From IMG/VR virus record IMGVR_UViG_3300037264_006630, positions 64,001-128,000 of that record: DNA of 64,000 bases, one strand, 5' to 3'. How positions within the stretch are numbered: position 1 is the first letter of the stretch; the number at the start of each line of letters is the position of its first letter. The notes beneath the pieces are model-generated. The model was not told the origin of the DNA, ran no database searches, and saw nothing but the letters and a program-made list of their open reading frames with translations. This DNA is from a virus. Positions 8,131 to 50,392 of the stretch are shown in pieces. The translations under genes were made by a program, and so were the position numbers.

Positions 8131-8233
8131 CATGTCCGAGTGATAGAGCACGTCGCGTGCCGATTCGTGCGCTCGTCGAAGTGTGCGAACCGGCTAGGAC
8201 GGCCACGGTCCGGAGTGTCGCTGGCGACGACAA
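8131..8233 (-). promoter_or_regulatory. Sigma54-type cassette A
   Basis: CGGCACG-CGAC-GTGCT (8162-8147), operator 8164-8189, palindrome 8215-8233, ATG 8133. Confidence 0.75.
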
Positions 8234-8294
8234 AATCGGTGGCCCCGAGACGGTGGCGGCTCGATTGTCGTTCGATGCCGGATGGTTAGCCTCG

Positions 8295-8313
8295 GTGTCG
8301 CCGCCGACGACAG
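8295..8313. repeat. Distal 19-bp palindrome of cassette A
   Basis: GTGTCGCCG-C-CGACGACAG, centre 80 bp from the proximal copy. Confidence 0.7.
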
Positions 8314-8331
8314 TGCGACGGGTTGGCGCGG

Positions 8332-11300
8332 TCAGGCCGCCAGGACTTCGTGCGCCAACTCCAAGAGGAAGTTGCCCCCGCCCGCATCGAACTGCGCCAA
8401 GCCGCCAGCCTCGTCGCCGTCGACCAGCTCGGCCGCTCGCATCTTCCGGGCGATCAGGTCGGTCGCTGTCGCCTGCATCGTGCCGGCGTAGGCCAGGAAC
8501 ACGACCCGCACGGGCTTGATCTGCCCGAGCCGCCAACTCCGGCGGATCGACTGGCGCAGCGTGTTGATGCTGTACTCGATCCCGTACTGGACGATCGTGT
8601 TGGCGAACATCAGGTCCAGTCCCGTCTCGACCAACCTCCCGTTGGTGAACATCACATCGAAGCCGTCCTCGCAGCGATCGCGCATCCACTGCTCCCGCTT
8701 CTCGGGATCGACGCTCGAGTCGAGTTGGACGACACGCAGGCCAGAGGCTTCGAGCGCGGCACGGACGCGGGGACGGGCATCGCGGCGCTGGGTCTGGGTG
8801 AAGAACACCAGCACCTTGCGACCCTTGGCGTGCTCCTCGCGCACCAGCGCGATCAGCTCATCGTCCTTGGGGTAGGAGTCCGGCTCGATTGCCGGGGCCG
8901 ACGCCAGGAGGTCGCCGCGCTCACCGTCGTCGTCGGTGTCGTAGATCTCCTCGCTCTGGTCCGGGCGATCGGGGTAGCCGAGGCACGCCTGGAGGTAGGC
9001 GCCGAGCGCCTTGGGGTGCTTGCGGATCAGCTTCTTCAACTTGCCCTGGAGGTCGGCAACCGCCGCGAGGACGGCCGGGTCCGGCTGCACCAAGCGCACT
9101 TCCTCGGTGTAGTCGGGCAGCTCGAGCCGCAGGTCCCGGAGCTTGACGAACACCGTGAAGGGCAAGAGCAGCGGGATCATGGCCGGCGACATGCCTGGGA
9201 TCTCGCGGATGCGCCCGCCGGTGGTGCCCTTCCGGTAGCCGTACGTGCTGGTGCGCTCCTCCTCCTTGTAGACCGTCTCGAAGAGGCCGTGATGCTCGAC
9301 GAAGGTCGCGCAGTCGGTGTGCTTGTACGTGCGGCGGAACGTCGGGGAGAGGCGGAAGAGCAGGTGGAAGATTGAGGACGCCCGGCCGCCGTAGAGCGTG
9401 CCGGTCATGACCAGCACCTTCCGCGCGCTCGAGATCAGTTGGTGGACGGCGCGCGCCTGGTCGGTCTCCCCCTTCGCGTGCTGGTGCGCTTCGTCGACCA
9501 CCAGCACGTAGCGGCGCGCGTAGTGGTCGTGGATGTAGGCCGCCAGCGGCCAGCGCTTGGTGCCCTTGTTCGTGATCGGCACGACCTGCCAGAGCGGGCT
9601 GCGGCACTCGCTGCACTTCGCCTGGACCTTCCGGTCGATGACCTTCACCTCGGCGCCGCATGCCGGGCAGGCGGCGAAGCTTCGGCGCTCCGTGACCATC
9701 TCCGTGCTGGTCTTGTACGGCCACTCGGTCGATCGGGTGGACACCTCGCGCTCGACGATCTCGCTACCCCGGGTCCAGGCCGACTCCCAGCGGCACCCGA
9801 GCTTGGCGACCTCCTTGCTCAAGACCAAGTAGGTGGCCGTCGGGGAGGCAAAGAACGCATCCACGTCCGCCAACTTCCGGGCGATCATCGCGACGCCGCG
9901 CCGGCCAGTGATGGCCGTGATCTCGCGGACCCACTTGCGGGTGAGATGGGTCGGGCAGACGACCACGACCTTCCGCGCGTGCGCCAACTCGGTGGCGACG
10001 GTGGCCACGCTCGTCTTGCCGCACCCCATTTCGCCGCACAGGATCACCTCCTTGTGCCTGCGCCAGCGGTGAACCACGGCCGCCGCCGCCTCGCGCTGGA
10101 TCGGGAGGATCTCTGGCTCGTCCCGGCCGGGCAGGATTCCAGGCGCGGACAGGCCAGTGAAGTCGTAGGCGTCGAGGTCGCTCGGCTTGAACTGCGGGAC
10201 GTGCGCAGCGAGGATGCCGGCCGCCAACTCGTCGCCGTGCTGCGCGAACCAAGCGCTGGTCTTGGGCTGGTCGTCCTCGACTTGCCACGAATCGAGCACG
10301 CCGGTCTTGAGGTCGAGCACCGAGAGGTACGAGGCGATGCGCTCGCGCACGGTCCGCTCGCCCTCGCCCTGGATCTCGACGGTGGTCTTCACGCTCCCGC
10401 CCTTCACGAGCAACCCCCGAGGGATCGGAGCCACCGGATCGCCGCCGCAGGTGGCGGCGCAACCGCCGGACATGTCGGTGAGCTCGAGCCCGTTCAGGGC
10501 GCCGGCCGCCAGGAGCATCGCTTGGTGACCAGGCCGCGGCGCGAGTAGCGGCGCCAGCTCGTGCGCGGCACCCTCGCCGGTGTGGGCGATCCACTGCTGC
10601 GACAGCCACGCGCCTTCATCGTCGGCGGGCGCGTAGCTCTCAGGCGCGCGGCCGATCAGATCGACCTTCGCGGCGATGACCGGGACGCGGATCGGATAGG
10701 GCTCGGCGTCGACCAGCGAGGGCAGACCGTCGGGGTCGTCGAAGCACTCCACGTTGCCGTAGCCGTAGGTCGAGTTGGTGCGCTGCGCGAAGACCACGAC
10801 TTGATCGAAGGCGGTGACCTCGGGGGCCGGGAAGGCGTAGGCACGGATCGACGAGTAGTGGTTCCGCATGAAGGTGCGGAAGGACTCGATGCGCAGGAGC
10901 TTCCGCGGCACGATGTAGATCAGCAAACCGTAGGGGGCGAGGAAGCGAGTCGTCGCGCGCAGGAATTCGATCTCCTGGCGCATGTTGGCGCCCGTCTCGT
11001 CGGTGCCCTCGTCGTACGGTGGGTTGAGGAACAGGATCCCGAACGGCCGCGCCGCCCGGTCCGGCTCGTGCGTGTCGGGGTTGAGCGCTTTGCCCTTGCC
11101 GTCGAGCACGGCGAGCTGGTGGTAGGAGCCGTGCCGCACCCAGATCATCACGCGAGCAGCCATCGCCGCCCGCTCCTGGTGCAGCTCGATGCCGTACGTG
11201 ACAGCGCCCCACAACTTGCCCAGCGCCGCGGCGGCGTACCCCTCGCCAGCGCAGGGATCGAGGAGCGCAGTGCCGGCCGATTCCGGGTCGAGCCGAACGA

Positions 11301-11376
11301 TGCGCCCGATCATCTGGGTCGGGCGGTCCGGGGTCGGGTAGTAGAGCGCCTTGGCGACGGCTTCGAGGCGCGCCAT
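8332..11376 (-). CDS. DNA N6-adenine/N4-cytosine methyltransferase fused to SF2 (SNF2-like) helicase
   Basis: LLDPCAGEG (motif I), YGIEL, FLNPPY (motif IV); CGEMGCGKT (Walker A), VVDEAHQ, MTGTLYGG, TNGRLVETGLDL, QSIRRSWRLGQ. Confidence 0.9.
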   Translation of the reverse strand: MARLEAVAKALYYPTPDRPTQMIGRIVRLDPESAGTALLDPCAGEGYAAAALGKLWGAVTYGIELHQERAAMAARVMIWVRHGSYHQLAVLDGKGKALNPDTHEPDRAARPFGILFLNPPYDEGTDETGANMRQEIEFLRATTRFLAPYGLLIYIVPRKLLRIESFRTFMRNHYSSIRAYAFPAPEVTAFDQVVVFAQRTNSTYGYGNVECFDDPDGLPSLVDAEPYPIRVPVIAAKVDLIGRAPESYAPADDEGAWLSQQWIAHTGEGAAHELAPLLAPRPGHQAMLLAAGALNGLELTDMSGGCAATCGGDPVAPIPRGLLVKGGSVKTTVEIQGEGERTVRERIASYLSVLDLKTGVLDSWQVEDDQPKTSAWFAQHGDELAAGILAAHVPQFKPSDLDAYDFTGLSAPGILPGRDEPEILPIQREAAAAVVHRWRRHKEVILCGEMGCGKTSVATVATELAHARKVVVVCPTHLTRKWVREITAITGRRGVAMIARKLADVDAFFASPTATYLVLSKEVAKLGCRWESAWTRGSEIVEREVSTRSTEWPYKTSTEMVTERRSFAACPACGAEVKVIDRKVQAKCSECRSPLWQVVPITNKGTKRWPLAAYIHDHYARRYVLVVDEAHQHAKGETDQARAVHQLISSARKVLVMTGTLYGGRASSIFHLLFRLSPTFRRTYKHTDCATFVEHHGLFETVYKEEERTSTYGYRKGTTGGRIREIPGMSPAMIPLLLPFTVFVKLRDLRLELPDYTEEVRLVQPDPAVLAAVADLQGKLKKLIRKHPKALGAYLQACLGYPDRPDQSEEIYDTDDDGERGDLLASAPAIEPDSYPKDDELIALVREEHAKGRKVLVFFTQTQRRDARPRVRAALEASGLRVVQLDSSVDPEKREQWMRDRCEDGFDVMFTNGRLVETGLDLMFANTIVQYGIEYSINTLRQSIRRSWRLGQIKPVRVVFLAYAGTMQATATDLIARKMRAAELVDGDEAGGLAQFDAGGGNFLLELAHEVLAA

Positions 11377-11919
11377 CTAGCGAAGCTCCCCGGCGACCAG
11401 GGCATCGCGGACGATCGGCTCCCAGACCTCGCGCTTGGTCGCCACATGCCAGACCTCGCGCCCGTGGCCGGTGACCTCGGTGATGGCGCCGCGCGCGCGG
11501 CCGATGTCCCAGAGCGGCTCACGCCACGCCGCGCGCAGCGGAACCGGGCACCAGCGCGCCAGCCGGTCGAAGTAGCGGCGCTCGGCGTCCGGCCCGGTCT
11601 GGTAGACGTACCCCAGGTCCGGCGCGTTGTGGCCGAGCTGCTGGTGGAAGATCACGCAGTGCAGAAGCCCGCGCTCGAGGGGGGGGTTCACGGTGGTGTA
11701 GGACGCCCGCTCGGACTTCGCGATGTAGGTGTCGCCGACCTGGATCGACTCCCGGCGCCCGCGCCGGCCGACCACCGACAGGGTGGCCCATGCTGCACGC
11801 ACCGCGTTGCGGGGGCCGAACATGGAGATCAGCACCAACTCGGACCGGTAGCCGTTGCCGGTCACGCGCAGCGCGTCGGCATGGCAGGTGAGCGCGCCTT
11901 TGATTGCGAGGAGGATCAT
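11377..11919 (-). CDS. Hypothetical partner of the methylase-helicase
   Basis: 180 aa; stop abuts the methylase ATG; ISMFGPRNAVRAAWA resembles proteins I recall upstream of such fusions in mobile elements. Confidence 0.7.
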   Translation of the reverse strand: MILLAIKGALTCHADALRVTGNGYRSELVLISMFGPRNAVRAAWATLSVVGRRGRRESIQVGDTYIAKSERASYTTVNPPLERGLLHCVIFHQQLGHNAPDLGYVYQTGPDAERRYFDRLARWCPVPLRAAWREPLWDIGRARGAITEVTGHGREVWHVATKREVWEPIVRDALVAGELR

Positions 11920-11957
11920 GGGTAGTCCAGGTATCACGTTGTCGGTGGAGCCCCGCC

Positions 11958-12203
11958 TCAGATGGCGCGGCGAACGAAGCGGATGTCCCGGGCGATCACG
12001 TCGCCGATGCGGTAGACGCCGTGCTGCACCGCAGCCAGGCCAGCGACGCTCATCACCACGGTCCCGTCCGCGATCGACTTCACCCGAGCGGTCACGTCCC
12101 GGCCCGCGTAGTCCTCGAAGACGCACAGACAGCCGGGCTCGAGGTCGGGCGCGATGGTCAGGTGGGCAGCGAGCTCGGGGGCCAGGATCGTCGCGTCGGG
12201 CAT
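11958..12203 (-). CDS. Hypothetical protein, first gene of cassette B
   Basis: ATG 14 nt after the -12 C. Confidence 0.7.
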   Translation of the reverse strand: MPDATILAPELAAHLTIAPDLEPGCLCVFEDYAGRDVTARVKSIADGTVVMSVAGLAAVQHGVYRIGDVIARDIRFVRRAI

Positions 12204-12303
12204 GTCAGGGTGTACTGCACGCGCGGTGCCACTTCGTGCGCGCGTGCAAGTGTACGAAAGCCCCACGCACGGGCCCCCGTGGGGGTGTCATCACGGACGA
12301 CAC
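12201..12303 (-). promoter_or_regulatory. Sigma54-type cassette B (left arm of divergent hub 1)
   Basis: TGGCACC-GCGC-GTGCA (12231-12216), operator 12233-12258, palindrome 12285-12303. Confidence 0.78.
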
Positions 12304-12376
12304 TCGCGCGATCCGGCTGGAAATCAGCCGCGAGAATACGCAACAAGTGAAGCATCCACGCGATGTTGCCACCAGG

Positions 12377-12395
12377 GCGTCGTCGCCACCGACAC
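12377..12395. repeat. Distal/shared 19-bp palindrome of hub 1
   Basis: GCGTCGTCG-C-CACCGACAC, centre 92 bp from 12285-12303. Confidence 0.6.
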
Positions 12396-12490
12396 CGCGT
12401 GACAGGCGGTCACGGCGTCTCCTAACCACGCGGATTGTGGCGGCGGTCGGGCGCTGGTTTCGAGGCCGATCGGCGGCGGCGCGACGAGGT

Positions 12491-12557
12491 TACGCGCGCT
12501 TATACGGGAGCGCAAACGCCGTGACTTGGCCCGCCGACTGCAATACAACTCGGCATG
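12491..12557 (+). promoter_or_regulatory. Sigma54-type cassette C (right arm of hub 1; weak operator)
   Basis: TGGCCCG-CCGA-CTGCA (12527-12542), ATG 12555; degenerate operator 12491-12516. Confidence 0.7.
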
Positions 12558-12824: not shown

Positions 12825-12834
12825 GCCCCACCCC

Positions 12835-13203: not shown

Positions 13204-13205
13204 CC

Positions 13206-13454: not shown

Positions 13455-13465
13455 GCCGCCACCGT

Positions 13466-13523
13466 CTCGCGCGCTCCATCGAGTGTGTGAACTGGCACCC
13501 GAAGTGCAATGCATCCGACCATG
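13466..13523 (+). promoter_or_regulatory. Sigma54-type cassette D
   Basis: Operator 13466-13491, TGGCACC-CGAA-GTGCA (13493-13508), ATG 13521; no palindrome seen. Confidence 0.72.
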
Positions 13524-14426: not shown

Positions 14427-14440
14427 ATCTGGGACACGGG

Positions 14441-14459
14441 GTGTCGGTGGTGACGACAG
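14441..14459. repeat. Distal 19-bp palindrome of cassette E
   Basis: GTGTCGGTG-G-TGACGACAG, 83 bp from the proximal copy. Confidence 0.7.
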
Positions 14460-14523
14460 GTAGCCGGCAACGCCGCGCGTTCACTGGAGAAAACACCCGG
14501 TATCCATAGGATTCCGGGTGTGG

Positions 14524-14632
14524 GTGTCGGTGGCGACGACACTCCGGACGCCGCGTCCTCCCCGGGCGCCACGTTTCGTGCGCTTCCACGCGTGTGCAAA
14601 CTGGCCCGCACCCTGCAATACACCCAGACATG
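14524..14632 (+). promoter_or_regulatory. Sigma54-type cassette E
   Basis: Palindrome 14524-14542 then TCCGGA, operator 14575-14600, TGGCCCG-CACC-CTGCA (14602-14617), ATG 14630. Confidence 0.8.
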
Positions 14633-15049: not shown

Positions 15050-15083
15050 CCCGCTGGCACGCAGCATGCTCAAGAGGAAAACC

Positions 15084-15407: not shown

Positions 15408-15447
15408 TTGACCGCGCACGGTTCGTGCGTATGATGGTGTGTATGAA
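15408..15447 (+). promoter_or_regulatory. Sigma70-type promoter with 26-bp operator (15422-15447)
   Basis: TTGACC-N16-TATGAT; TTCGTGCGT-ATGATGGT-GTGTATGAA. Confidence 0.82.
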
Positions 15448-23468: not shown

Positions 23469-23509
23469 TTGACGGCGGCGGCGTTCGTGCGTATGTTCAG
23501 GCGCATGAA
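23469..23509 (+). promoter_or_regulatory. Sigma70-type promoter with 26-bp operator (23484-23509)
   Basis: TTGACG-N17-TATGTT; TTCGTGCGT-ATGTTCAG-GCGCATGAA. Confidence 0.8.
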
Positions 23510-26517: not shown

Positions 26518-27240
26518 GTGCCGCGCGCCAAGGCCACGGCCGAGTCGAAGACCAAGGACCCGGGCGCGATCGTCACGGCGAAGCGGCAGAAGCTCGCCGC
26601 CAAGATCGCCGAGAAGGGGCCACCGTCGGTCTTCCAGCGGGGCGGCCGGCTGGTGCAGGTGCAGTTGCTGCTCGCCGAGTCGGTGAGCGAGCCGGAAATC
26701 GTCCGCTGGCTCACCACCGAGATCACCCCAGCGATGGTGACCGCCGCCGCCGCCGAGGGGCGCGCGCTCACCGTGAAGCCGTGGAAGGTGACCCCGGCGA
26801 CGGCGCGCGACTACATCAAGTCGGCCTGGCGCGAGTGGCAGGAAGACGAGCGCGCACCGCTGGGCAAGGTCCGCACCCTCGATCGCCAGCGCATCCTTCA
26901 CGTCTACCGGACCGCCCTCAAGGACGGCAACCTGATCGTGGCCCTGCGCGCGGCCGAGTCCGTGGCCCGGATGAACGGCTCGTTCGTGCCGCAGCTCGAG
27001 GCCCCGGTTGGGGTGGACATGGAAGCCGACGAGGCGGCGGAGGCGATCGAGCACGGCTACGCGACGCTCCTGCTCGCGCGGCGCCGCGGCGCGCTCTCGT
27101 TCAAGCAGACCGCCAACGCCATCGACGTGCCAGCCGGCGGCGATGCCGGTGATGATGCGCTCGAGGTGGAGGTCAAGGACGCGCTGTCGGCTGCGCCGCC
27201 GGTGCCTGTGGTCGAGCCCCCGCTGGGGAGCGCGAACTGA
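26518..27240 (+). CDS. Candidate terminase small subunit
   Basis: Helical HTH-like protein whose stop overlaps the large-terminase ATG; position-based call. Confidence 0.55.
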   Translation: MPRAKATAESKTKDPGAIVTAKRQKLAAKIAEKGPPSVFQRGGRLVQVQLLLAESVSEPEIVRWLTTEITPAMVTAAAAEGRALTVKPWKVTPATARDYIKSAWREWQEDERAPLGKVRTLDRQRILHVYRTALKDGNLIVALRAAESVARMNGSFVPQLEAPVGVDMEADEAAEAIEHGYATLLLARRRGALSFKQTANAIDVPAGGDAGDDALEVEVKDALSAAPPVPVVEPPLGSAN

Positions 27241-28820
27241 TGGGCGCCGCCGCGAAGAAGAAGCCGGCGGCGAGGCCGGAGCGGAAGTCGCACGCCGCCG
27301 CCAAGCACGAGCGCGGCTCGCGCGCCGACGTGATCGCCGCTGGCGCCAAGACCAAGCAGGCGACCGACGCGGTGCTGGTCCGCGCAGCTCGCCGCGACCC
27401 GGCGGTCTTCAACCAGTACGTCCTCCGGGACGAGTCGACCAACCGACCGATCCTGCTCTGCGACATGCACGCGGAGTGGCAAGACCTGCTCACCGCGCAT
27501 CCCCGCGTCGTGATCTGGTCGGGCACAGAGCAAGGAAAATCGGTTCAGTTGTCGGTGGGCCGGGTGCTGTGGGAGATCGGCAAGAACCCTTCGCTGCGCG
27601 TACTCATCGTCTGCGCCGCGCAGAGCGTCGCCAAGAACATCGTCGAGTCGATCCGCCGCTACATCGAGCAGTCGATCGAACTCGCCGCGGTCTTCCCGCA
27701 CTTGAAGAAGGGCAAGATCTGGAAGCAGTCCGAGATCACCGTGGCGCGGCCTGGCCAGTCGCGCGACCCGACGGTCAAGGCCGTGGGCTACGGGAGCAGG
27801 TCGGTGCTCGGCTCGCGCGTCGATCTGGTGGTCTGCGACGACTACCTGAACGATCAGAACACCGCGACCGAGAAGCAGCGCAAGCAGGCTTACTCCTGGC
27901 TCAAGTCGATCGTCGAGGGCCGCAAGACCCCCAACGCTCGGTGGTGGTTCATCGGCAACACCTGGCATGTGCGCGACGCGATGCACATGTACGCCAAGGA
28001 GCCGGGCACGGTCTCAAGGAAGTACCCGATCCTAGACGAGCACGGCAAGCCGCGCTGGGCCGAGCGCTGGCCGATCGAACGCTACTTGCAGGAGCGTGCG
28101 AACCGCGGTCCGGTCGCCGCCGCGCAGTCGCTCGACTGCATCGCTGCCAACGACAACTCGGTCTACTTCCCGATCAAGAGCATCTGGCCGGCGCTCGTCA
28201 AGGGTGACGGGTTCACCCTGCACCCGACCTTCCCGCCGCACCTCTCCCACGAGGGCTGGGCGACGTACACCGGCGTCGACCTCGCGTTCTCCGAGGAGAG
28301 CGACTCCGACGACACTGCGATCGTGACCATCTCCGTCGACCCCAAGGGGGAGTGCCGCATCCTCTGGATCGACGCGGGGAAGTGGACCGGGCCGGAGATC
28401 ATCGACCGCGTCATCGACCACCACAACCGCTACGGGTCGATCGTCTGGGTCGAGGACAACGCCGGTCAGATCTACATCAAGCAGGGGGTCAGCGAGCGGA
28501 AGATCTCGGTGCCGGTTCGCGGCCACACCACCACCGCGACCAACCGCCTCCACCGCCGGACCGGCATCGCCTCTCTCGCGGTCACCATGCAGAACGGACG
28601 CTACCTGATCCCGAACCGCAACGCCGGGAAGGTTGATCCCGTCGCCGCTGGCCTGGGGGCGCTGATCCTGGCTCCCGAGATCAAGAAGCTGATCGCCGAG
28701 ATGATGGAGTGGTCACCGGAGTCGCACACCGGCGACCGCTTGCAGGCGCTCTGGATCGCCACGCTGGCCGCCAACAAGCACGGCTCGACCGCCGTGGTGA
28801 AGAAGCCGAGGGGGACCTGA
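27240..28820 (+). CDS. terL: Terminase large subunit
   Basis: SGTEQGKS (Walker A), LVVCDD (Walker B), IGNTWH..D coupling motif, TGVDLA...SDDTAIV and GDRLQALW nuclease motifs. Confidence 0.92.
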   Translation: MGAAAKKKPAARPERKSHAAAKHERGSRADVIAAGAKTKQATDAVLVRAARRDPAVFNQYVLRDESTNRPILLCDMHAEWQDLLTAHPRVVIWSGTEQGKSVQLSVGRVLWEIGKNPSLRVLIVCAAQSVAKNIVESIRRYIEQSIELAAVFPHLKKGKIWKQSEITVARPGQSRDPTVKAVGYGSRSVLGSRVDLVVCDDYLNDQNTATEKQRKQAYSWLKSIVEGRKTPNARWWFIGNTWHVRDAMHMYAKEPGTVSRKYPILDEHGKPRWAERWPIERYLQERANRGPVAAAQSLDCIAANDNSVYFPIKSIWPALVKGDGFTLHPTFPPHLSHEGWATYTGVDLAFSEESDSDDTAIVTISVDPKGECRILWIDAGKWTGPEIIDRVIDHHNRYGSIVWVEDNAGQIYIKQGVSERKISVPVRGHTTTATNRLHRRTGIASLAVTMQNGRYLIPNRNAGKVDPVAAGLGALILAPEIKKLIAEMMEWSPESHTGDRLQALWIATLAANKHGSTAVVKKPRGT

Positions 28821-29124
28821 TGAACGACATCGAACGAGCTCGTGATCGCCGGGACGACAAGGCGGGCCCCTGGGAGGTCTGCCGGATCATGTGCCTGGTG
28901 TGCCAGTTCCGGTACGTGAGCGTCCACCCGCTGTACAAGAACGACGAGGGCGATCTGGTCGACCTCACGACACTCCAGTGCGCGCGCTGCAAGGAGCGCA
29001 TGAGCGCGGTCCTGCCGATGCCCGACGAGCCACCGCCCGGCGACTCCGACGCCCCGCCCGACGAGCCAGCGACAGACGTTGCCGCTGGCGCCAGCGTCGG
29101 CGACTCTCCCACCCGGAGCACGCC

Positions 29125-29143
<19 letters not shown>
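28820..29143 (+). CDS. Small Zn-ribbon protein
   Basis: CLVC...CARC; ATG overlaps the terL stop. Confidence 0.6.
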
Positions 29144-31178
<2,035 letters not shown>

Positions 31179-31182
<4 letters not shown>

Positions 31183-31596: not shown

Positions 31597-32127
31597 CTAC
31601 TTGCCGTCTGCCGCCGCGAAGTCGATGCCGATCACGGTCCAGCGCTCGCCGTCGATCTCGACGGTGTGCAGGCGGTCATCGATGAACCGGGACGCCCCGC
31701 GCAGGATGCGGATCACGGTGGCCAAGCGCTTGCGCGCGAGGAGGGCGAACACCTTGGCGATCGCGGTGTCCGCGTCCCGCCATCGCGCTCGCCGCACCTC
31801 GATGTCGGCCGTGGCGCCGGCGTCGATGGCCTGCCGGTAGGCGGTGATGTGGGCCAGGTAGCAGGAGCGGATGAGGTCGATCGCCTGGGCGGCTGGCACC
31901 ATCTCGTAGTAGGCGTCACCGCCGATCCAGACGTGACCCTCGGGGATGGGACCGCCGGGTGCGTCGTCGGCGGGCCCGCGGATGATGACCAAGTCCCGTC
32001 CGGGCGGACAGACGTTCATGTCGAAGAGGATGCGCGAGAGCCAGGTGGAGAGGGAGCGCAGGTCGTCCACCGACGGGGAGGTGAAGGGCGGCCCCGGGAA
32101 CGCGATCACGCCGTCGTCAGGTTTCAT
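31597..32127 (-). CDS. Hypothetical protein, probably leaderless
   Basis: Operator-embedded ATG; MKPDDG... Confidence 0.7.
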   Translation of the reverse strand: MKPDDGVIAFPGPPFTSPSVDDLRSLSTWLSRILFDMNVCPPGRDLVIIRGPADDAPGGPIPEGHVWIGGDAYYEMVPAAQAIDLIRSCYLAHITAYRQAIDAGATADIEVRRARWRDADTAIAKVFALLARKRLATVIRILRGASRFIDDRLHTVEIDGERWTVIGIDFAAADGK

Positions 32128-32163
32128 ACACACCATGATGCGCACGAAGTTGGGCGTGGTCAA
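32123..32163 (-). promoter_or_regulatory. Sigma70-type promoter with 26-bp operator (32123-32148)
   Basis: TTGACC-N17-CATCAT; TTCGTGCGC-ATCATGGT-GTGTATGAA; the -35 overlaps the upstream TGA. Confidence 0.78.
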
Positions 32164-33030: not shown

Positions 33031-33061
33031 GCTCTGGAAGAGATGCACGTCGAGGGCCACT

Positions 33062-33991
33062 TCACGCGCTCGGTGAGGTGTGCGAAGCAGCGGCGGGGCC
33101 GGGCTCGAGGTAGCCGCAGCCGGCCGCCTTGGTCGCGCGTACCGCCCGGCCGCAGACCTTGCAGGGCTTGCGGTCGCGCTGCGGGGTGTAGGGCGTGGCG
33201 ACCCAGCGATCGAGCGGCGTGCCGGTCTGGGTCTTCGAGTTGTAGGCCATGATCGAGAGCTTGCGGCCGTTCTTCGCGGTGGGCGGCTTGTCGGCCTCGA
33301 GCTTGACGACCCGGGCAAACTGCTCGGGCAGGTCGACGGCGAAGCGCTGCCAGTCGCCCTTGGTGCCGTAGGGGCAGAACACGCAGGCGGACTTGCGCGG
33401 AACCGGGAAGCCGGCGCGCCGCACGAGATCCTCGCACGCGCAACGGCAGAGGCCGCGCTCGATCAGCGGGAAGCGGTTGCGGCGGATCGCGCCGCCCGGC
33501 CGGCGGCGGCGACGGCCGCCCGCGTTCGGATCCTTGTCTGCGCGGGATTCCTCGCCGCGCTCGAACCCGATCCAGACCTCGACCTCTTGGCCGGGGTACC
33601 GATCGTCGAGCCAGCTCTCGAAGCGCTCGACCTTGGCGACGGTGGTGCAGATCCGGTTCGGCCCGGCCATCGGGATCTGCTTCCGCGCGCGCAGCCACGC
33701 GAACAGGCTGCGCGCGTCGCGGACCGGGTAGTTGCTGTGGTCGATGCACACGAACTCGATCCCGTGGCGCGCGCACAGCGGCCGCACCACCTCGTCGATG
33801 TGGCGGTAGGTGCCGGGCCACTCGCCTGGATCGTCGGGGTGGCCGACGTCGATGAACACCACGACGTCGATCCGCTCGCCGCGCGCGATGCCCTCGACGA
33901 GCATGGCGAAGCTGTCGAGGCCACCGCCGAGCGAGAGCACGACGGGGCGGCGCCGGAGCCCCAGGTCGACGGTGAAGTCGAGCTGGTTCAC
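33062..33991 (-). CDS. PP-loop (PAPS-reductase-like) adenine nucleotide alpha hydrolase
   Basis: VVLSLGGGLDS, FIDVG..GEWPGTY, RICT..AK, WIGFERGE..R, FPLIE, KSACVFCPY. Confidence 0.8.
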   Translation of the reverse strand: MNQLDFTVDLGLRRRPVVLSLGGGLDSFAMLVEGIARGERIDVVVFIDVGHPDDPGEWPGTYRHIDEVVRPLCARHGIEFVCIDHSNYPVRDARSLFAWLRARKQIPMAGPNRICTTVAKVERFESWLDDRYPGQEVEVWIGFERGEESRADKDPNAGGRRRRRPGGAIRRNRFPLIERGLCRCACEDLVRRAGFPVPRKSACVFCPYGTKGDWQRFAVDLPEQFARVVKLEADKPPTAKNGRKLSIMAYNSKTQTGTPLDRWVATPYTPQRDRKPCKVCGRAVRATKAAGCGYLEPGPAAASHTSPSA

Positions 33992-34900: not shown

Positions 34901-34996
34901 GCCGAGGAGTATTGCACGGCCGGTGCCACTTCACGCGCATCAGCAGACGCACGAACGACGGCCGGCTTCCGTCCGGAGTGTCGTCGGCGACGACAC
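34898..34996 (-). promoter_or_regulatory. Sigma54-type cassette F
   Basis: TGGCACC-GGCC-GTGCA (34928-34913), operator 34930-34955, perfect palindrome 34978-34996 with TCCGGA. Confidence 0.8.
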
Positions 34997-35070: not shown

Positions 35071-35089
35071 CTGTCGCCGTGGCCGACAC
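35071..35089. repeat. Distal 19-bp palindrome of cassette F
   Basis: CTGTCGCCG-T-GGCCGACAC, 93 bp from the proximal copy. Confidence 0.65.
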
Positions 35090-36001: not shown

Positions 36002-36056
36002 GGTCGAGATGCTTTGCACGCGGTGTGCCGTTCGTGCGCCTAATGATGTGTACGAT
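35999..36056 (-). promoter_or_regulatory. Sigma54-type cassette G
   Basis: CGGCACA-CCGC-GTGCA (36030-36015), operator 36031-36056, ATG 36001; no palindrome seen. Confidence 0.72.
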
Positions 36057-36858: not shown

Positions 36859-36912
36859 GCCTCGATCATAAGCACGCGGCGTGCCGTTCGTGCGCTTGTT
36901 CATGTGCGCGAA
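36856..36912 (-). promoter_or_regulatory. Sigma54-type cassette H (left arm of divergent hub 2)
   Basis: CGGCACG-CCGC-GTGCT (36886-36871), operator 36887-36912. Confidence 0.78.
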
Positions 36913-37119: not shown

Positions 37120-37222
37120 GTGTCGTCGGTGGTGACAGGGGCAGCGCCGGCGTGGGTGTGGTGTTTCGTGCGCTTGGACGTGCGCACGAAGTGGCACGTA
37201 GCATGCTCTACATCCAGACATG
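37120..37222 (+). promoter_or_regulatory. Sigma54-type cassette I (right arm of hub 2)
   Basis: Palindrome 37120-37138, operator TTCGTGCGC-TTGGACGT-GCGCACGAA 37165-37190, TGGCACG-TAGC-ATGCT (37192-37207), ATG 37220. Confidence 0.82.
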
Positions 37223-38951: not shown

Positions 38952-38970
38952 GTGTCAGCCACGACGACAG
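38952..38970. repeat. Distal 19-bp palindrome of cassette J
   Basis: GTGTCAGCC-A-CGACGACAG, 93 bp from the proximal copy. Confidence 0.7.
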
Positions 38971-39044: not shown

Positions 39045-39143
39045 GTGTCGTCGCCGACGACACTCCGGACTCGGGTCCCCCGCGTTTCGTGCGCCTGAAC
39101 GTACGCGCGAACCGGCACGCCGACTGCAATACACCTCGACATG
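39045..39143 (+). promoter_or_regulatory. Sigma54-type cassette J
   Basis: Perfect palindrome 39045-39063 then TCCGGA, operator 39086-39111, CGGCACG-CCGA-CTGCA (39113-39128), ATG 39141. Confidence 0.82.
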
Positions 39144-39543: not shown

Positions 39544-39583
39544 TTGACCTCGCCAGTTTCGTGCATATCATGGAGTGTATGAA
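39544..39583 (+). promoter_or_regulatory. Sigma70-type promoter with 26-bp operator (39558-39583)
   Basis: TTGACC-N16-TATCAT; TTCGTGCAT-ATCATGGA-GTGTATGAA. Confidence 0.8.
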
Positions 39584-40949: not shown

Positions 40950-41188
40950 GCTCGGCCCTGTTGCAGCCGCGAGCCGGCATCATCGTCGTGCGGGTCGGGC
41001 AGCTCGTCGTGGCCGGCAACGACTCCTACCAACTCGTCGCCCTGGGCGGCGTCTACGGCGAGGAGGTGCGGCTCTTGGGCAACAAGCCCTACCGGAAGTC
41101 CCGCGCCAAGCCGCTCGGCTGGCGTCGGACCGCGCCACGTCGGCGCACCTGTCGTCCGTGCCGACAGCCGGATGCCAAGGCCGCGTAG
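40946..41188 (+). CDS. Hypothetical protein
   Basis: GTGA overlap; 80 aa. Confidence 0.5.
   Translation: MSSALLQPRAGIIVVRVGQLVVAGNDSYQLVALGGVYGEEVRLLGNKPYRKSRAKPLGWRRTAPRRRTCRPCRQPDAKAA
41149..41167. repeat. Distal 19-bp palindrome of cassette K (inside the upstream ORF)
   Basis: CTGTCGTCC-G-TGCCGACAG, 93 bp from the proximal copy. Confidence 0.65.
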
Positions 41189-41241: not shown

Positions 41242-41327
41242 CTGTCGTCGCGGACGACACTCCGGACCGCCGCGCGGGACGAGATCGTGCGCACTTGGAG
41301 GCGCGTGAACTTGGCACCGCTCATGCT
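41242..41327 (+). promoter_or_regulatory. Sigma54-type cassette K (no proximal ATG)
   Basis: Palindrome 41242-41260 then TCCGGA, operator 41284-41309, TGGCACC-GCTC-ATGCT (41312-41327). Confidence 0.75.
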
Positions 41328-41382: not shown

Positions 41383-41883
41383 ATGATCTGGGTACACCGC
41401 GACCTACTGCCACCCGCCGTACATGTCATCGTCTCGGGCTGCACTGCGCGTCACGGCGCTGCGGCCGGTATCGCCACCACGTGGGCATCCCAGATCGTGC
41501 AGCGGCGAGGCGCCGACCCGCAGGCGCACATTTTCGCGGGCATGGCGCCCGACGAGCCCATCACCACGATCGGCGTGGCGCGCGGCGTCTCCGCGACGGC
41601 GGCGGCAGGCCGGGTCGTCACGGTGCTGCCGGGCGAGCGCGACCCCGCCGACCGCTCGTGGCTCCGCGAGCTGGCCGCGATGGCGCCGGCGTCCCCCGTC
41701 GGACTCGCGATCGTCGCGATCGTCGACGCCTGGGATTGGGCGGATCGCACGCCCCACGACACCTGCACCGAGTCCGAGGCGCGGGCGCTGGGCCTGCACA
41801 TCGGCTACCCAGGCGAGCGGCACGTCGCCTACCCGGAGGCGATGGGCGTCCGCCTGATCCCGGACCATCCGCCGCAGTGCTGA
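41383..41883 (+). CDS. Hypothetical protein
   Basis: AGGAGG SD before ATG 41383. Confidence 0.65.
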   Translation: MIWVHRDLLPPAVHVIVSGCTARHGAAAGIATTWASQIVQRRGADPQAHIFAGMAPDEPITTIGVARGVSATAAAGRVVTVLPGERDPADRSWLRELAAMAPASPVGLAIVAIVDAWDWADRTPHDTCTESEARALGLHIGYPGERHVAYPEAMGVRLIPDHPPQC

Positions 41884-43169: not shown

Positions 43170-43206
43170 CCATCAACCGTCACCGACAACGACAGGAAAC
43201 CAAACG

Positions 43207-43991: not shown

Positions 43992-43994
43992 CGG

Positions 43995-44096
43995 GTGTCG
44001 TCGGCGACTACAGGCCGGCGACCACTCCGGAACCAGACTTCGCACACCTGCACGAGCGCACGAACCGGCACACCCCGTGCAGTACCAGGCACCATG
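43995..44096 (+). promoter_or_regulatory. Sigma54-type cassette L
   Basis: Palindrome 43995-44013, operator 44039-44064, CGGCACA-CCCC-GTGCA (44066-44081), ATG 44094. Confidence 0.8.
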
Positions 44097-46032: not shown

Positions 46033-47243
46033 AGCGACCGATCGGGATCGACGTCCTCGCCGCCGCTCGCCAGCGGATCGCGTGGGTGTTCGACGCCTTC
46101 CCGCGGATCTACCTGTCCGGCCCCAGCGGCAAGGACTCGTCGGTGATGATGCACCTGGTCTGCCAGGAGGCGCGTCGCCGCGGTCGGCGGGTGGGCGTGC
46201 TGTTCCTCGATCTCGAGGCGCAGTACCGCCTCACCATCGACCACGTCCGCGACATGTTCGCGCTCTACGCCGACGTGATCGATCCGTTCTGGGTCGCCCT
46301 GCCGCTCAACCTGCGCAACGCGGTGAGCCAGATCGCCCCGTTCTGGACGTGCTGGGATCCTGCGGCCGAGCCGCTCTGGGTGCGGCCCCGGGAGCCGGGC
46401 AGCATCGCCGACCCCGAGCGCTTCCCGTTCTACCGCCACGCGATGGAGTTCGAGGAGTTCGTCGAGGGGTTCGGCAACTGGTACGCGGGCGACGAGGCGT
46501 GCGCGTGCTTCGTCGGCATCCGCGCCAACGAGTCGCTCAACCGCTGGCGGGCGATCGTCCGGCGCCGGAAGTCGCGGCTCGAGGGCCGCGCCTACACCAC
46601 CTGGCGCGGTGACCAGCTCGTGAACGTCTACCCGATCTACGACTGGCGCACCGAGGATATCTGGACCTACGTCGGCCGCGAGCGCGCGGCCTACAACCGC
46701 ATCTACGACGGCATGCACCAGGCCGGGATGTCGATCCACCAGATGCGGATCTGCCAGCCCTACGGGGATGACCAGCGCCGGAGTTTGAACCTTTACCACG
46801 TCCTCGAGCCCCTCACCTGGACCCGCGTCGTCGCGCGCGTGGCCGGCGCCAACCAGGGCGCGCTCTACGCCGGCAAGCGCGGCAACATCCTCGGCAACGG
46901 CAACATCGTGCTGCCCGCCGGCCACACCTGGCAGAGCTTCGTGGAGTTCCTGCTCGCCTCGATGCCGCAGGCCGAGGCAGACAACTACCGCGACAAGATC
47001 GCGGTGTTCATCCAGTGGTGGCGCAACCGGTACGGCCTCGAGATGACCGAGGACGACGACCCCGATCTGGTCGGCACGTACAAGCGCCAGCCGACGTGGA
47101 AGCGGGTGGCCAAGGTCATCCTCAAGAACGACTTTCTCTGCAAGGGTCTGAGCTTCTCGCAGCAACGCAGCGAGCCGAGCTCGTACGACCGGTACAAGAA
47201 GCTGATGCGCGACCGCCGCGCGAGATGGGGCATCTACGCATGA
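46029..47243 (+). CDS. IbrA/YbdN-like PAPS-reductase-family (PP-loop) protein with DUF3440-like tail
   Basis: YLSGPSGKDSSV, FLDLEAQY, WVALPLNLRNAVS, FVGIRANESLNRW, VYPIYDWRTEDIW, MRICQPYGDDQR, ILKNDFLCKGLSF. Confidence 0.88.
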   Translation: MKRPIGIDVLAAARQRIAWVFDAFPRIYLSGPSGKDSSVMMHLVCQEARRRGRRVGVLFLDLEAQYRLTIDHVRDMFALYADVIDPFWVALPLNLRNAVSQIAPFWTCWDPAAEPLWVRPREPGSIADPERFPFYRHAMEFEEFVEGFGNWYAGDEACACFVGIRANESLNRWRAIVRRRKSRLEGRAYTTWRGDQLVNVYPIYDWRTEDIWTYVGRERAAYNRIYDGMHQAGMSIHQMRICQPYGDDQRRSLNLYHVLEPLTWTRVVARVAGANQGALYAGKRGNILGNGNIVLPAGHTWQSFVEFLLASMPQAEADNYRDKIAVFIQWWRNRYGLEMTEDDDPDLVGTYKRQPTWKRVAKVILKNDFLCKGLSFSQQRSEPSSYDRYKKLMRDRRARWGIYA

Positions 47244-47614
47244 CCGACGACAAGGACAAGAACGGCATCCCGCTGGACCTCGTGCGCGCTGCGCGCCGCG
47301 AGGAGTCGCTCCGCGGACGGGTCCACCTGTGCAGCACCCGCCGCGAGCCGCTCCTGGTCGATGGGCAGGTGGTCGGCTTCGTCACTCCGCGCCAGGTCGG
47401 CGACGCCTGGCGGCACGGCCCGATCTACGTGGCCCCGGGCTTCCGCAGTCGGGGACTCGTGGCCGCCTACTACGCCTCCCACCCGGAGCGGATCTGCGTG
47501 GCGTTCGTCGCCGACAGTAACCGCTCGTCGCGGTCTGCGCACGTCGCGGCTGGGTTCGCCAACTGGCGCCGCGGCAAGGACGGCTGGTTCATGCGGCGGG
47601 AGGCGCAGCCGTGA
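47240..47614 (+). CDS. Small GNAT-fold acetyltransferase-like protein
   Basis: VVGF...GPIYVAPGFRSRGL (motif A), NRSS..AHVAAGF (motif B). Confidence 0.65.
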   Translation: MTDDKDKNGIPLDLVRAARREESLRGRVHLCSTRREPLLVDGQVVGFVTPRQVGDAWRHGPIYVAPGFRSRGLVAAYYASHPERICVAFVADSNRSSRSAHVAAGFANWRRGKDGWFMRREAQP

Positions 47615-48240
47615 TCGAGGCCCTGACCGAGCAGCTCTGCGCCGAGCTCGCGCAGCTCGACGAGGACGCGCGGATCGACGCACTCAACGCCGTGCGCACC
47701 GCCCTGCACGCGGTGTCGCCGCTGCGCGCCGAGCCGGTCGACCTGGTGCTGTGGGTCCGGGCCGAGCAGGTCCGCGGCAACGACTACAACCCCAACAGCG
47801 TAGCGCCGCCCGAGATGCGGCTCCTCCAGCACAGCGTCCTGGCCAACGGCTTCACCATGCCGATCGTCACCCATGAGATCGACGACGGCGTGACCGAGGT
47901 GGTCGATGGGTTCCACCGCCACCGCATCGGCAAGGACACCCCGGAGATCCGCACGCGCTGTCACGCCCGCCTGCCGGTCACCCGGATCCGCGCCGACCGC
48001 GCCGACACCGGCGCCCGCATCGCCGCCACCATCGAGCACAACCGCGCCCGCGGTGAGCATCAGGTCGGCCGCATGAGCGAGATCGTCCGCATGCTGTACC
48101 AGCAGGGCTGGAGCGAGACGCGGATCATGAAGGAGTTGGGGATGGAGGCCGACGAAGTGTTGCGCCTCAAGCAGATGACCGGGCTCGCTGACCTGTTCGC
48201 GGGCCGTGAATTCTCCGAGGCATGGGAGCCGAACGAATGA
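47611..48240 (+). CDS. IbrB/YbdM-like ParB/Srx-domain protein
   Basis: NDYNPNSVAPPEMRLL..SVLANGFTMPIV, VVDGFHRH, ATIEHNRARGEH, ELGMEADEVLRLKQMTG. Confidence 0.9.
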   Translation: MIEALTEQLCAELAQLDEDARIDALNAVRTALHAVSPLRAEPVDLVLWVRAEQVRGNDYNPNSVAPPEMRLLQHSVLANGFTMPIVTHEIDDGVTEVVDGFHRHRIGKDTPEIRTRCHARLPVTRIRADRADTGARIAATIEHNRARGEHQVGRMSEIVRMLYQQGWSETRIMKELGMEADEVLRLKQMTGLADLFAGREFSEAWEPNE

Positions 48241-48461
48241 CCGACCGCATCCGCCACCTCACCGTCCTGCTCGAGCAGGACACCCGCACCGACGATCTCG
48301 AACCGATCATCGCCGCCATCTCCCACATCCGCGGCGTCGCCAAGGTGACGCCCGGCCAGCCGGTGAACATGAGTGACTACATCGCCCGCGAGACCGCCAA
48401 GCGCGAACTCGGCGTGCAGCTCTTGGCGATCGTCTTCCCGAAGCAGGAGCCGCGGTCGTGA
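48237..48461 (+). CDS. Hypothetical protein
   Basis: ATGA overlap; 74 aa. Confidence 0.65.
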   Translation: MTDRIRHLTVLLEQDTRTDDLEPIIAAISHIRGVAKVTPGQPVNMSDYIARETAKRELGVQLLAIVFPKQEPRS

Positions 48462-48652
48462 GCGGCAAGATCGGAGTCGGTTCAGTGGTCCTCTTGAATG
48501 GCGCCCATTGGACCGTGGAGGAGGTGTTCAACGCGCACGGACACGATGCGGCGCACTTGGTCCGGGACGCGGGCGGCCAGCCGCAGCGTGCGCTGGCCGT
48601 GCCGCTGGATGGGTTGGCCGCCGTCGATGTCGCCGTCCCGGTCAAGGAGTGA
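48458..48652 (+). CDS. Hypothetical protein
   Basis: GTGA overlap. Confidence 0.6.
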   Translation: MSGKIGVGSVVLLNGAHWTVEEVFNAHGHDAAHLVRDAGGQPQRALAVPLDGLAAVDVAVPVKE

Positions 48653-48654
48653 CC

Positions 48655-48993
48655 ATGCCCGAGCCGATCAGCCTAACCCCGCCGGCCGCCGCCTGCGCCA
48701 TCCTCACCATCACCACCGACCGCGGCACCATCGAGGCGTGGGTCGTCTTCGACGATCTCCACACCGCGCAGGCACGCTTCGTCGAAGCGCCGACCTGGCC
48801 CGAGGCCACGAAGTACATCATGCAGGCGGACGGCAACACCTCCGCGGTCGCGGGTCGCGGGCGCCGCTGGTACGTCGTCCGCGACAGCGGCGAGGTCACG
48901 CCCTGGCACCTGGCCCCGGCCGAGCTCACCTACGCCGCCGACCTGCGCCGCGCCTGCGAGGCCGCGCTGGTCATGAACGGCTCGCACTCGTGA
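48655..48993 (+). CDS. Hypothetical protein
   Basis: AAGGAG SD; 112 aa. Confidence 0.65.
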   Translation: MPEPISLTPPAAACAILTITTDRGTIEAWVVFDDLHTAQARFVEAPTWPEATKYIMQADGNTSAVAGRGRRWYVVRDSGEVTPWHLAPAELTYAADLRRACEAALVMNGSHS

Positions 48994-49011
48994 TGCGCCA
49001 CCTCGTCACGC

Positions 49012-49030
49012 CTGTCGTCGGCGCCGACAC
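49012..49030. repeat. Distal 19-bp palindrome of cassette M
   Basis: CTGTCGTCG-G-CGCCGACAC, 95 bp from the proximal copy. Confidence 0.7.
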
Positions 49031-49106
49031 CTGCACCGCAAGCCCGCAGGCCGGCACGTCGTTCGAGGGACTGGCGAGATCGCGCACGGTCACCATCCGT
49101 TCCGCG

Positions 49107-49208
49107 CTGTCGCCGCCAGCGACACCCGGCCCCGATCGCCCCCAGCATCCGCGCCACCTTCCGTCCACCGCCAACCTGGCACCCCTCGTGCTCTACACCT
49201 CCACCATG
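49107..49208 (+). promoter_or_regulatory. Sigma54-type cassette M (operator absent)
   Basis: Palindrome 49107-49125, TGGCACC-CCTC-GTGCT (49177-49192), ATG 49206. Confidence 0.72.
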
Positions 49209-49364
49209 ACCAACGCCTCGACCGACACCAGCACGCCGCCCGCGGAGCCCACGCCCGCTGCCACCGAGCGGCGGCCGAGCCCGCCCTTCCCGTTCATCGA
49301 CATCAGCGGGGCCGCCGAAGCCAGGGCCGCCGTGGGTCAGCCCGTCCCGCCCGGAGTCAACTGA
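49206..49364 (+). CDS. Small Pro-rich hypothetical protein
   Basis: 52 aa from the promoter-proximal ATG; stop 1 nt before the next ATG. Confidence 0.55.
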   Translation: MTNASTDTSTPPAEPTPAATERRPSPPFPFIDISGAAEARAAVGQPVPPGVN

Positions 49365-49365
49365 G

Positions 49366-49635
49366 ATGCCCGAGTCCAAGCCCAAGAAGCTCCGCGCCGA
49401 GGTCGCCGCTCGCGCAGCCCACGGCACCCGCCAGGCCATCCCCGTCATCACCGATGTGGCGCCGGTGCCGAAGCGCCACCTGACCCTGCCGGACGTCGTT
49501 CGCGAGGTCACCCACCGCGGTCGGTTCACGGTGACCCAGATCGCCGGCGCCATCGGCGTCTCGGCCGGGTCAGTCCGGTTCTCTGAGATCGCCACCGAGG
49601 TCGGCAAGGTCCCCGGCTACCGGCCGCTCCGGTAA
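49366..49635 (+). CDS. Small protein, possible HTH
   Basis: LPDVVREV...FTVTQIAGAIGVSAGSV. Confidence 0.55.
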   Translation: MPESKPKKLRAEVAARAAHGTRQAIPVITDVAPVPKRHLTLPDVVREVTHRGRFTVTQIAGAIGVSAGSVRFSEIATEVGKVPGYRPLR

Positions 49636-49788
49636 CCGCTCCCCGTTCACGCGCTCCAGCCTGGCCTTCCCCAGCGGGCGCCCGGGGCTGTCGATGGGAC
49701 CTCACCTGTCGATAGCACCCCTCACCCGGGTTTGGTAGCTGACCTCGGAGGTCAGACTGGAACGCGCGAGCAGCCAAGGATTACGATC

Positions 49789-50070
49789 ATGCCCACCACC
49801 AAGACCCTCACTCACCCGACGATCCACCTGAACGGCTCCGGCCGCCAGCACCTCCTGGACGGCTACAGCAACGCGCGCGACAAGGTCCGCGAGCTCGAGT
49901 CCGCGCTCATGGCGGCGGCGCCCAACGGCCGCGACTACTACCCGCAGGGCGAGTCCGCGATCGGCCGTGCCATCGCCGAGCACTGCTCGCGCCTGGACCG
50001 CCTCCGGGCGCTCGATGCCGAGTTGGCCGAGCTCCAGCAGGCCGTGGCCGACGCGTCGGGTCGCCGGTGA
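49789..50070 (+). CDS. Conserved phage hypothetical protein
   Basis: PTIHLNGS...APNGRDYYPQG motif recognised from other phages. Confidence 0.75.
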   Translation: MPTTKTLTHPTIHLNGSGRQHLLDGYSNARDKVRELESALMAAAPNGRDYYPQGESAIGRAIAEHCSRLDRLRALDAELAELQQAVADASGRR

Positions 50071-50273
50071 TGTCGGCCCTGTTCTACCGGCTGCACCAGA
50101 CCGGACGCGGCGCGCGCGACTTCACCGAGCGGTACGAGGCGATCGCGCAGTGGCGGCACGCAACCACCCAGGTGGAGGACGGCGAGAGCACCAGCCTCTA
50201 CGCGGTCCGGGAGAGCAAGAACGAGGAGGAGCTCCTGGCTCACTACCAGCCGGTCCCGCACCGGATGGTGTAG
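50067..50273 (+). CDS. Hypothetical protein
   Basis: GTGA overlap. Confidence 0.55.
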   Translation: MMSALFYRLHQTGRGARDFTERYEAIAQWRHATTQVEDGESTSLYAVRESKNEEELLAHYQPVPHRMV

Positions 50274-50291
50274 CTATGCAACTTCTGCGGA

Positions 50292-50392
50292 CTGGAGTCG
50301 GCGACGACAGTTGAGCCGCTACTCCGGACCAGCCTTCGCGCACATGAACGTGCGCACGAACGGCACGCCGCGTGCTGTAGTATCCGGGCATG
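50292..50392 (+). promoter_or_regulatory. Sigma54-type cassette N
   Basis: Palindrome 50292-50310, operator TTCGCGCAC-ATGAACGT-GCGCACGAA 50335-50360, CGGCACG-CCGC-GTGCT (50361-50376), ATG 50390. Confidence 0.8.

Follow-up and report, generated by a model that had tools for sequence, protein, structure and literature searches.

Enhancer-dependent sigma54 promoters, such as glnAp2/NtrC, nifH/NifA and pilA/PilR or the NmpR and PexR promoters of M. xanthus, combine a GG-N10-GC core with paired upstream dyads. Transcription from sigma54 promoters starts 11-13 nt after the C of the -12 box, and the intergenic position between pilR and the pilin gene is that of an established sigma54 promoter in other bacteria. 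The RpoN consensus is given as yTGGCACGrnnnTTGCw (PMC12754779). Here we describe a family of 16 promoters of this type (class I) in a 64,000-nucleotide stretch of phage DNA, hereafter the window, which represents bases 64001-128000 of a complete 184,943-bp genome with terminal repeats (IMG/VR record IMGVR_UViG_3300037264_006630). Judging from the sequence, the promoter family is real, it probably depends on sigma54, and its parts appear to be known while their combination appears new. Compared with classical sigma54 promoters, those of the phage occur in 16 copies, seem leaderless, have V rather than T at position -15, and carry a putative operator abutting the -24 box; moreover, their candidate enhancer sites lie about 90 bp apart, against 5-24 bp for the NmpR sites (PMC11841059).

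In the portions of the literature available to us, the use of sigma54 by phages is described as rare and rests mainly on Pseudomonas phage YuA, which has no RNA polymerase of its own and is reported to depend on host sigma54, making such use rare but not unprecedented (PMC5053324); one sigma54-like promoter, P015, has been mapped (PMC10914365), and those portions describe no enhancer array, leaderless starts or shared operator for YuA. The first-pass annotation of the window knew of no well-characterised phage regulon of the present design. YuA is a precedent for phage use of sigma54 as such, whereas a phage sigma54 regulon with enhancers was not found in a literature search covering few subscription journals, which returned only isolated phage sigma54 promoters.

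Dispersed operators bound by a phage repressor are known from P1 (C1) and phiC31 (CIRs). In cluster A mycobacteriophages, one phage repressor recognizes dozens of genome-wide stoperators (PMC9283540). The sites that we call Box B differ from these in being symmetric, in lying at promoters in all cases, in serving two unrelated sigma classes, and in having a ribbon-helix-helix (RHH) protein as candidate binder; in addition, no tyrosine integrase was found in this phage (no match to PF00589, no separate search for a serine integrase having been made). The candidate repressor resembles P22 Arc/Mnt, MetJ and NikR in its weak sequence and fold matches, in the paired pseudo-palindromic 8-mers of its operator and in its predicted autoregulation, but would have two RHH units per chain and about 36 operators instead of one or few. 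Among the cultured phages searched, no relative was found: the best terminase is 25% identical and the promoter cassette is unmatched. Likewise, a search of IMG/VR by capsid, terminase and motif recovered no relative with multi-copy cassettes, a scan of JGI metagenomes for Box B followed by the core gave no match, and neither did Rfam against the window.

Class I cores, start codons and host promoter style

The 14 motifs of the first-pass annotation all match YGGCMC-N6-TGCW exactly, in coordinates and strand, and two further intergenic cores, at 15055-15070 (plus strand) and 33044-33059 (minus strand), bring class I to 16 members; another match, at 33086 on the minus strand, lies inside a gene and is a chance hit. 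The cores are given below in window coordinates, with the downstream ATG and the palindromes Box B and Box A discussed in the following sections.

8147..8162, minus strand: core; Box B 8164-8189; Box A 8215-8233 and 8295-8313; ATG 8133
12216..12231, minus strand: core; Box B 12233-12258; Box A 12285-12303, 12377-12395 (common to divergent 12527); ATG 12203
12527..12542, plus strand: core, divergent partner of 12216; Box B weak only; ATG 12555
13493..13508, plus strand: core; Box B 13466-13491; without its own Box A; ATG 13521
14602..14617, plus strand: core; Box B 14575-14600; Box A 14524-14542 and 14441-14459; ATG 14630; orthologous promoter in the related phage L214
15055..15070, plus strand: core, missed by the first pass; without boxes; ATG 15084; same place in L214
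33044..33059, minus strand: core, missed by the first pass; Box B 33061-33086; ATG 33030
34913..34928, minus strand: core; Box B 34930-34955; Box A 34978-34996 and 35071-35089; ATG 34900
36015..36030, minus strand: core; Box B 36031-36056; ATG 36001
36871..36886, minus strand: core, divergent from 37192; Box B 36887-36912; ATG 36858
37192..37207, plus strand: core; Box B 37165-37190; Box A 37120-37138; ATG 37220; orthologous promoter in L214
39113..39128, plus strand: core; Box B 39086-39111; Box A 39045-39063 and 38952-38970; ATG 39141
41312..41327, plus strand: core, leadered, with Shine-Dalgarno; Box B 41284-41309; Box A 41242-41260 and 41149-41167
44066..44081, plus strand: core; Box B 44039-44064; Box A 43995-44013; ATG 44094
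49177..49192, plus strand: core; Box A 49107-49125 and 49012-49030; Box B decayed; ATG 49206
50361..50376, plus strand: core; Box B 50335-50360; Box A weak; ATG 50390 (PAPS-reductase-family gene)

The comparison with shuffled sequence that the first-pass annotation had proposed places the motif far above background, with 17 cores in the window against a mean of 2.4 in dinucleotide shuffles (maximum 7). The enrichment is seen only at a spacer of 6 nt (17, against 0-4 for spacers of 3-5 and 7-9), the separation of GG and GC is exactly 10 nt in all 16 class I sites, and the remaining 121 kb of the genome holds only 2 cores. A core followed by an ATG at +13 to +15 occurs 15 times in the window and 0.07 times in shuffles (maximum 1). 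The ATG at 14-15 nt past the -12 C, previously noted at 13 of 14 sites, is thus present at 15 of 16 once the two added sites are counted (the A lies at 14 nt in nine and at 15 nt in six), and the orientation of the sites into the downstream gene is confirmed as well. The exception is 41312, where a leader with AGGAGG precedes an ATG near 41383.

Given where sigma54 starts transcription, an ATG at this distance would leave a leader of 1-3 nt. All 15 of these ATGs are directly preceded by C, and this pyrimidine suggests that the A of the ATG may itself be the transcription start. An independent gene caller chose the same ATG for 8 of 9 proteins, which lends weak support to these starts, but the ATG at 8133 opens a 59-codon extension with a weak coding score and may not be a real start. 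Class I as a whole spans 8-50 kb of the window and about 45 genes, which are small and mostly of unknown function.

The phage encodes neither sigma54, nor a sigma70 region 2, nor an intact bacterial enhancer-binding protein (bEBP). Identity between its DNA clamp and Kofleriaceae DnaN reaches 70% along the entire length, and of the 80 best loci almost all belong to Kofleriaceae/Haliangiales bins or to unnamed deltaproteobacterial bins, from which we infer that the host is a Kofleriaceae myxobacterium. The five Kofleriaceae genomes examined all contain rpoN, at least 60-79 bEBPs are found per genome, and in four Kofleriaceae the pilR-pilin intergenic promoter reads YGGCAC-N5-VTGCW, with a base other than T at -15.

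In the Kofleriaceae genomes G005-G009, 58-75 cores per genome are followed by an ATG at +13 to +15, almost always at +14 or +15, against 6-10 for the reversed pattern, while cores with an ATG at +16 to +18 number 18-31 per genome (five genomes). These leaderless sites occur at 8 per Mb, about ten times the median of 0.85 per Mb in 80 other Myxococcota, and 30 of them, inspected individually, have plausible genes downstream and contain neither GAAC nor TACA. Since sites of the same form are so abundant in the host genomes, the predicted leaderless start is, on this comparison, a host trait, and the phage would be copying the promoter style of its host. The near-leaderless starts proposed by the first-pass annotation would not be a peculiarity of the phage. 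The literature search, which covered few subscription journals, yielded no account of myxobacteria using leaderless sigma54 transcription on a genome scale. Dozens of leaderless sigma54-type genes per Kofleriaceae genome would allow start sites to be calibrated against the -12 box. Many of the host sites head genes for secreted proteins and lipoproteins.

Together with this host comparison, the fixed-distance, enhancer-like palindromes and the conservation in related phages support the original sigma54 reading, and we consider that class I promoters very probably use host sigma54.

Box B, class II promoters and a candidate repressor

The first-pass annotation had listed the promoters correctly, but had missed Box A, Box B, a second promoter class of sigmaA type and the candidate repressor. 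Box B is a 26-bp palindrome, TTCRYRCRY-N8-RYGYRYGAA, with 36 copies in the genome at no more than 1 mismatch and 38 at no more than 2 mismatches, where Markov simulations yield 0-3. At 13 class I promoters, a copy lies directly upstream of the -24 box, with a gap of 0-2 nt. When sites were selected by Box B only, among the copies that have no start codon inside the box, 13 of 14 had a perfect core 0-2 nt downstream, for which the chance is about 3e-4 per site; therefore, the invariance of the core is not an artefact of the search pattern.

Another 23 copies, spread genome-wide, cover the -10 box and start of leaderless sigmaA-type promoters (class II), whose layout consists of a TTGAC-like -35 box (22 of 23), 16-19 nt, TAnnnT, exactly 7 nt, and an ATG that falls within the right half-site of Box B. 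Class II promoters head runs that hold the terminase, portal and capsid genes. The following class II copies of Box B, each over the -10 box and start, lie in the window.

1766..1791, minus strand: Box B over a leaderless sigmaA-type promoter; ATG 1770
7394..7419, minus strand: Box B; ATG 7398, opening a 10-codon leaderless upstream open reading frame (uORF) coupled to the next gene
15422..15447, plus strand: Box B; ATG 15443
23484..23509, plus strand: Box B; ATG 23505; heads a co-oriented run with terminase and portal
32123..32148, minus strand: Box B; ATG 32127
39558..39583, plus strand: Box B; ATG 39579
51556..51581, plus strand: Box B; ATG 51577
55676..55701, plus strand: Box B; ATG 55697, opening a 7-codon uORF whose stop overlaps the RHH gene start

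Because occupancy of the -10 box and +1 at 23 sigmaA-type promoters fits only repression, Box B is in our judgement likely to be a repressor operator. It could otherwise be a site for an activator or a DNA-bending protein that aids enhancer looping, or be bound by a protein other than an RHH; in class I promoters it sits between enhancer and core (-54 to -28), as IHF sites usually do, LuxR-type boxes have the same 8-4-8 symmetry, and a phage gene for a LuxR-type helix-turn-helix (HTH) protein lies in a class II operon. However, beside its placement in class II, the box abuts the -24 element by 0-2 nt, and the related phages L221, L306 and L307 have no sigma54 cores in the stretches examined, yet keep a related operator and the RHH gene, which makes this alternative unlikely.

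Two pseudo-palindromic 8-mers, with 12 bp between one and the next, make up the core of Box B, as expected of an operator to which RHH proteins such as Arc and MetJ bind cooperatively. A candidate binder is encoded next to one of the copies.

55717..56166, plus strand: tandem-RHH gene; 149 aa, two predicted ribbon-helix-helix units; candidate Box B repressor

This gene is the first of a class II unit and is coupled through the 7-codon leaderless uORF. A profile built from the small proteins of three relatives finds it at E 1e-10, along with an orthologue in a fourth relative; orthologues occur in L220, L221, L304 and L306, plus 54 representatives. The gene lies behind an operator-bearing promoter in four phages (G000, L307, L308 and L310), directly so in L308. 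The RHH evidence is weak but concordant, with one match per half (Pfam, PDB, Foldseek), and on balance we regard the tandem-RHH protein as a reasonable candidate for the Box B binder.

Two other interpretations of Box B were rejected. As a host regulon, it gave only coding hits in bacterioferritin among those inspected, and is not a host motif; as a LexA box, it does not agree with the tandem GTTCAG sites of host lexA, and the best Box B match upstream of host lexA/recA has 3-7 mismatches. Separately, TGTCCG/CGGACA repeats accompany a sigma54-like promoter at one of the host recA copies; the loci L298-L302, L284-L293 and L244-L247 cover this promoter, the lexA sites and the pil dyad described below.

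At window 55697 and 7398 and at genome 5749, short leaderless uORFs (7-10 codons) end in a stop that overlaps the start codon of the following gene, and may encode starter peptides for translational coupling. At genome 23510, a perfect Box B covers a TTGACA promoter with no ATG; the 175-aa open reading frame downstream has no matches and may be non-coding.

Box A and the proposed activator of class I

Box A is a dyad, STGTCG-N7-CGACAS (core TGTCG-N7-CGACA), with 18 genome matches at no more than 1 mismatch, 16 of which are centred 73-83 or 155-170 nt upstream of the -12 C. It accompanies 10 of the 16 class I promoters, seven of them with both copies. Among 101 host genomes, 11 have Box A combined with a core, against 0 control hits, and 7 of 14 such cases are at 74-77 nt; in 10 of 15 selected genomes, Box A lies at 100-124 nt from the core. 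The host genes behind these promoters mostly encode lipoproteins (PLD with HhH, DUF6748), and also an outer-membrane efflux protein. Since its position and symmetry fit those of a bEBP enhancer and the same distance recurs in host promoters, Box A is probably the binding site of a host enhancer-binding activator.

The TGT-N11-ACA of Box A resembles the PilR hallmark quoted in PMC6058289. However, host pil promoters carry a GGTGACG-N5-CGTCACC-like dyad and not Box A, and the activator should therefore be another bEBP; the host pilB regions examined do not include pilR or pilA.

The promoters could also be of sigma54 type but opened by an activator of the phage itself, either the FHA-AAA-HTH protein encoded from genome 19741 onward (L003:1741 onward) or an unrecognised one, in which case they would not report the state of the host. 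The phage does carry this bEBP-derived gene, but the protein falls short of a functional bEBP, since its GAFTGA loop is deleted and its Walker A/B motifs are degenerate. The gene is the sole match to the bEBP profile in a six-frame search of the phage, it adjoins a DDE transposase, and the same Box A distance is found in host promoters, all of which makes a phage-borne activator quite improbable. The gene, with its FHA-like part, AAA remnant and HTH, also adjoins two small RHH genes and has four close homologues of 38-50% identity.

Two observations concern the surroundings of Box A. Seven promoters, and L220 as well, have the sequence ACTCCGGA adjoining their proximal Box A or a little downstream of it.

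8207-8215, 14541, 34971-34979, 39062, 41259, 44024 and 50321 (window): copies of ACTCCGGA near the proximal Box A

Three host genomes (L158:1600-1960, L166 and L227) share, behind a sigma54-type promoter with Box A, a conserved stretch of at least 360 nt in which no open reading frame is convincing; Rfam has no match for it in L158 or L166, and it is possibly a new non-coding RNA.

Related phages, the remaining readings and a proposed circuit

The relatives L214, L220 and L310 keep Box A, the operator, the core and the ATG at +14 or +15, with diverged spacers. L214 (terminase 76% identical) has orthologous class I promoters before orthologous genes, L220 (53%) has two class I promoters and L310 has one. 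In L221 and L306 (terminase 46-47%), only sigmaA-type promoters with a related operator are present in the 21-kb stretches examined. The PAPS-reductase-family gene, under class I in this phage, is under class II in L220 and L307. Most simply, the system of operator and repressor would be the older one, with sigma54 cassettes added in one branch.

The first-pass annotation had offered an extracytoplasmic function (ECF)-type promoter as an alternative, in which an ECF or other sigma70-family factor would read GAAC as -35 and TACA as -10, with GG-N10-GC as a mere spacer. The distance between the two elements, 16-17 nt, is indeed ECF-like, and TA is frequent at -9/-8 in the phage sites. Nevertheless, GAAC occurs in 9 of 22 phage-family sites, TACA in 9 of 22 and both together in only 2 of 22, whereas GGC-C and TGC are invariant; moreover, the GAA is the end of the separate operator Box B and shifts by 0-2 nt relative to the core. 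The 30 host sites lack both elements, the phage has no sigma70 region 2, and an ECF promoter would leave the paired distant palindromes unexplained, so that we give this reading very little credence. A gene at genome 153547 has an ECF-like start but no sigma domain.

It is equally improbable that a protein recognizes the core as a palindrome (GCAC-N5-GTGC) or that the core is a non-promoter relic of a duplicated cassette: although 11 of 22 cores are perfect palindromes and the cassettes look alike, half of the cores retain GG and GC without being palindromic, the 5-prime YG is mirrored in none of 22, the orientation and ATG distance are fixed, and boxes persist while spacers have diverged across phages with 53-76% terminase identity.

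The overall explanation that we favour, with moderate confidence, is one of promoters driven by host sigma54 and a host bEBP under a phage repressor. It comprises two leaderless, host-read promoter classes under one operator. On entry, class II would be read by sigmaA, the repressor gene included, with no need for an activator. At class I, sigma54 holoenzyme would sit on the -24/-12 elements as a closed complex until one host enhancer-binding ATPase reaches it by looping from the paired Box A sites to which it is bound, and opens it, giving mRNAs that start at the AUG or 1-3 nt before it, as predicted for many host sigma54 genes. The phage repressor, most likely the tandem-RHH protein, would bind Box B. 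At class I this would obstruct either sigma54 holoenzyme or the looping, and at class II, the repressor's own promoter included, it would block the -10/+1 region, so that rising repressor would shut both classes. Class I would thus behave as an AND gate, requiring the host signal on and the phage repressor off.

Because class II heads the terminase, portal and capsid runs and a ParB-like gene is encoded by the phage, we lean tentatively towards a dormancy switch for this circuit rather than a plain early shut-off. If true, the phage would make a large block of genes conditional on host signalling via a sigma factor that is off by default, and the use of one operator across two unrelated holoenzymes would be an unusual design. 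A bolder and more tentative version would have a clade of myxobacterial phages capture a host bEBP as host-state sensor for a 45-gene module, a single tandem-RHH repressor silence both this sigma54 module and the sigmaA genes in an integrase-free dormant state, and Kofleriaceae use leaderless sigma54 promoters at genome scale.

Several points weigh against the proposed circuit. The assignment of the host rests on a single captured gene and the promoter style, and the backwards-pattern control used for the host genomes is imperfect. Six class I promoters have no strong Box A of their own; the host matches to Box A are few, partly mutual orthologues, and come from one part of the family; and no bEBP gene was found within 1.5 kb of the host sites with Box A and core. 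As for the repressor, the RHH matches are weak (hits to four RHH families of Pfam at E 0.01-0.03, none reaching the cut-off, and two PDB profile hits, at E 0.0035 and 0.039), and Foldseek on the model (pTM 0.42) returned mostly RHH rows at E above 4, with no significant match. The phage also encodes other DNA-binding candidates, namely the LuxR-type HTH protein (3889-4179), an XRE/Cro-like protein and sigma70-region-4 proteins.

The LuxR-type HTH protein (window 3889-4179, minus strand) is an orphan, and one sigma70-region-4 protein (genome 171584-172225) is Cys-rich. The XRE/Cro-like gene (genome 166527) was rejected as a partner of Box B, since Box B is absent there and the gene is bracketed by a different repeat. 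It lies between recombination and replication operons (L008:6400-6900, genome 166400-166900), with two copies of an 18-bp repeat that begins CGGTTTCGGGC at its flanks, which form a local operator distinct from Box B.

The terminase and portal genes (window 27240-31182) sit midway through the accessory region and 30 kb away from the capsid gene, and this order is kept in relatives. Outside the window, the genome has four tRNA genes (L005:5753-7472), and its proteins include several methyltransferases, one member of the Mom family, one protein with a release-factor (PCRF) domain and a SNF2 helicase that carries an intein.

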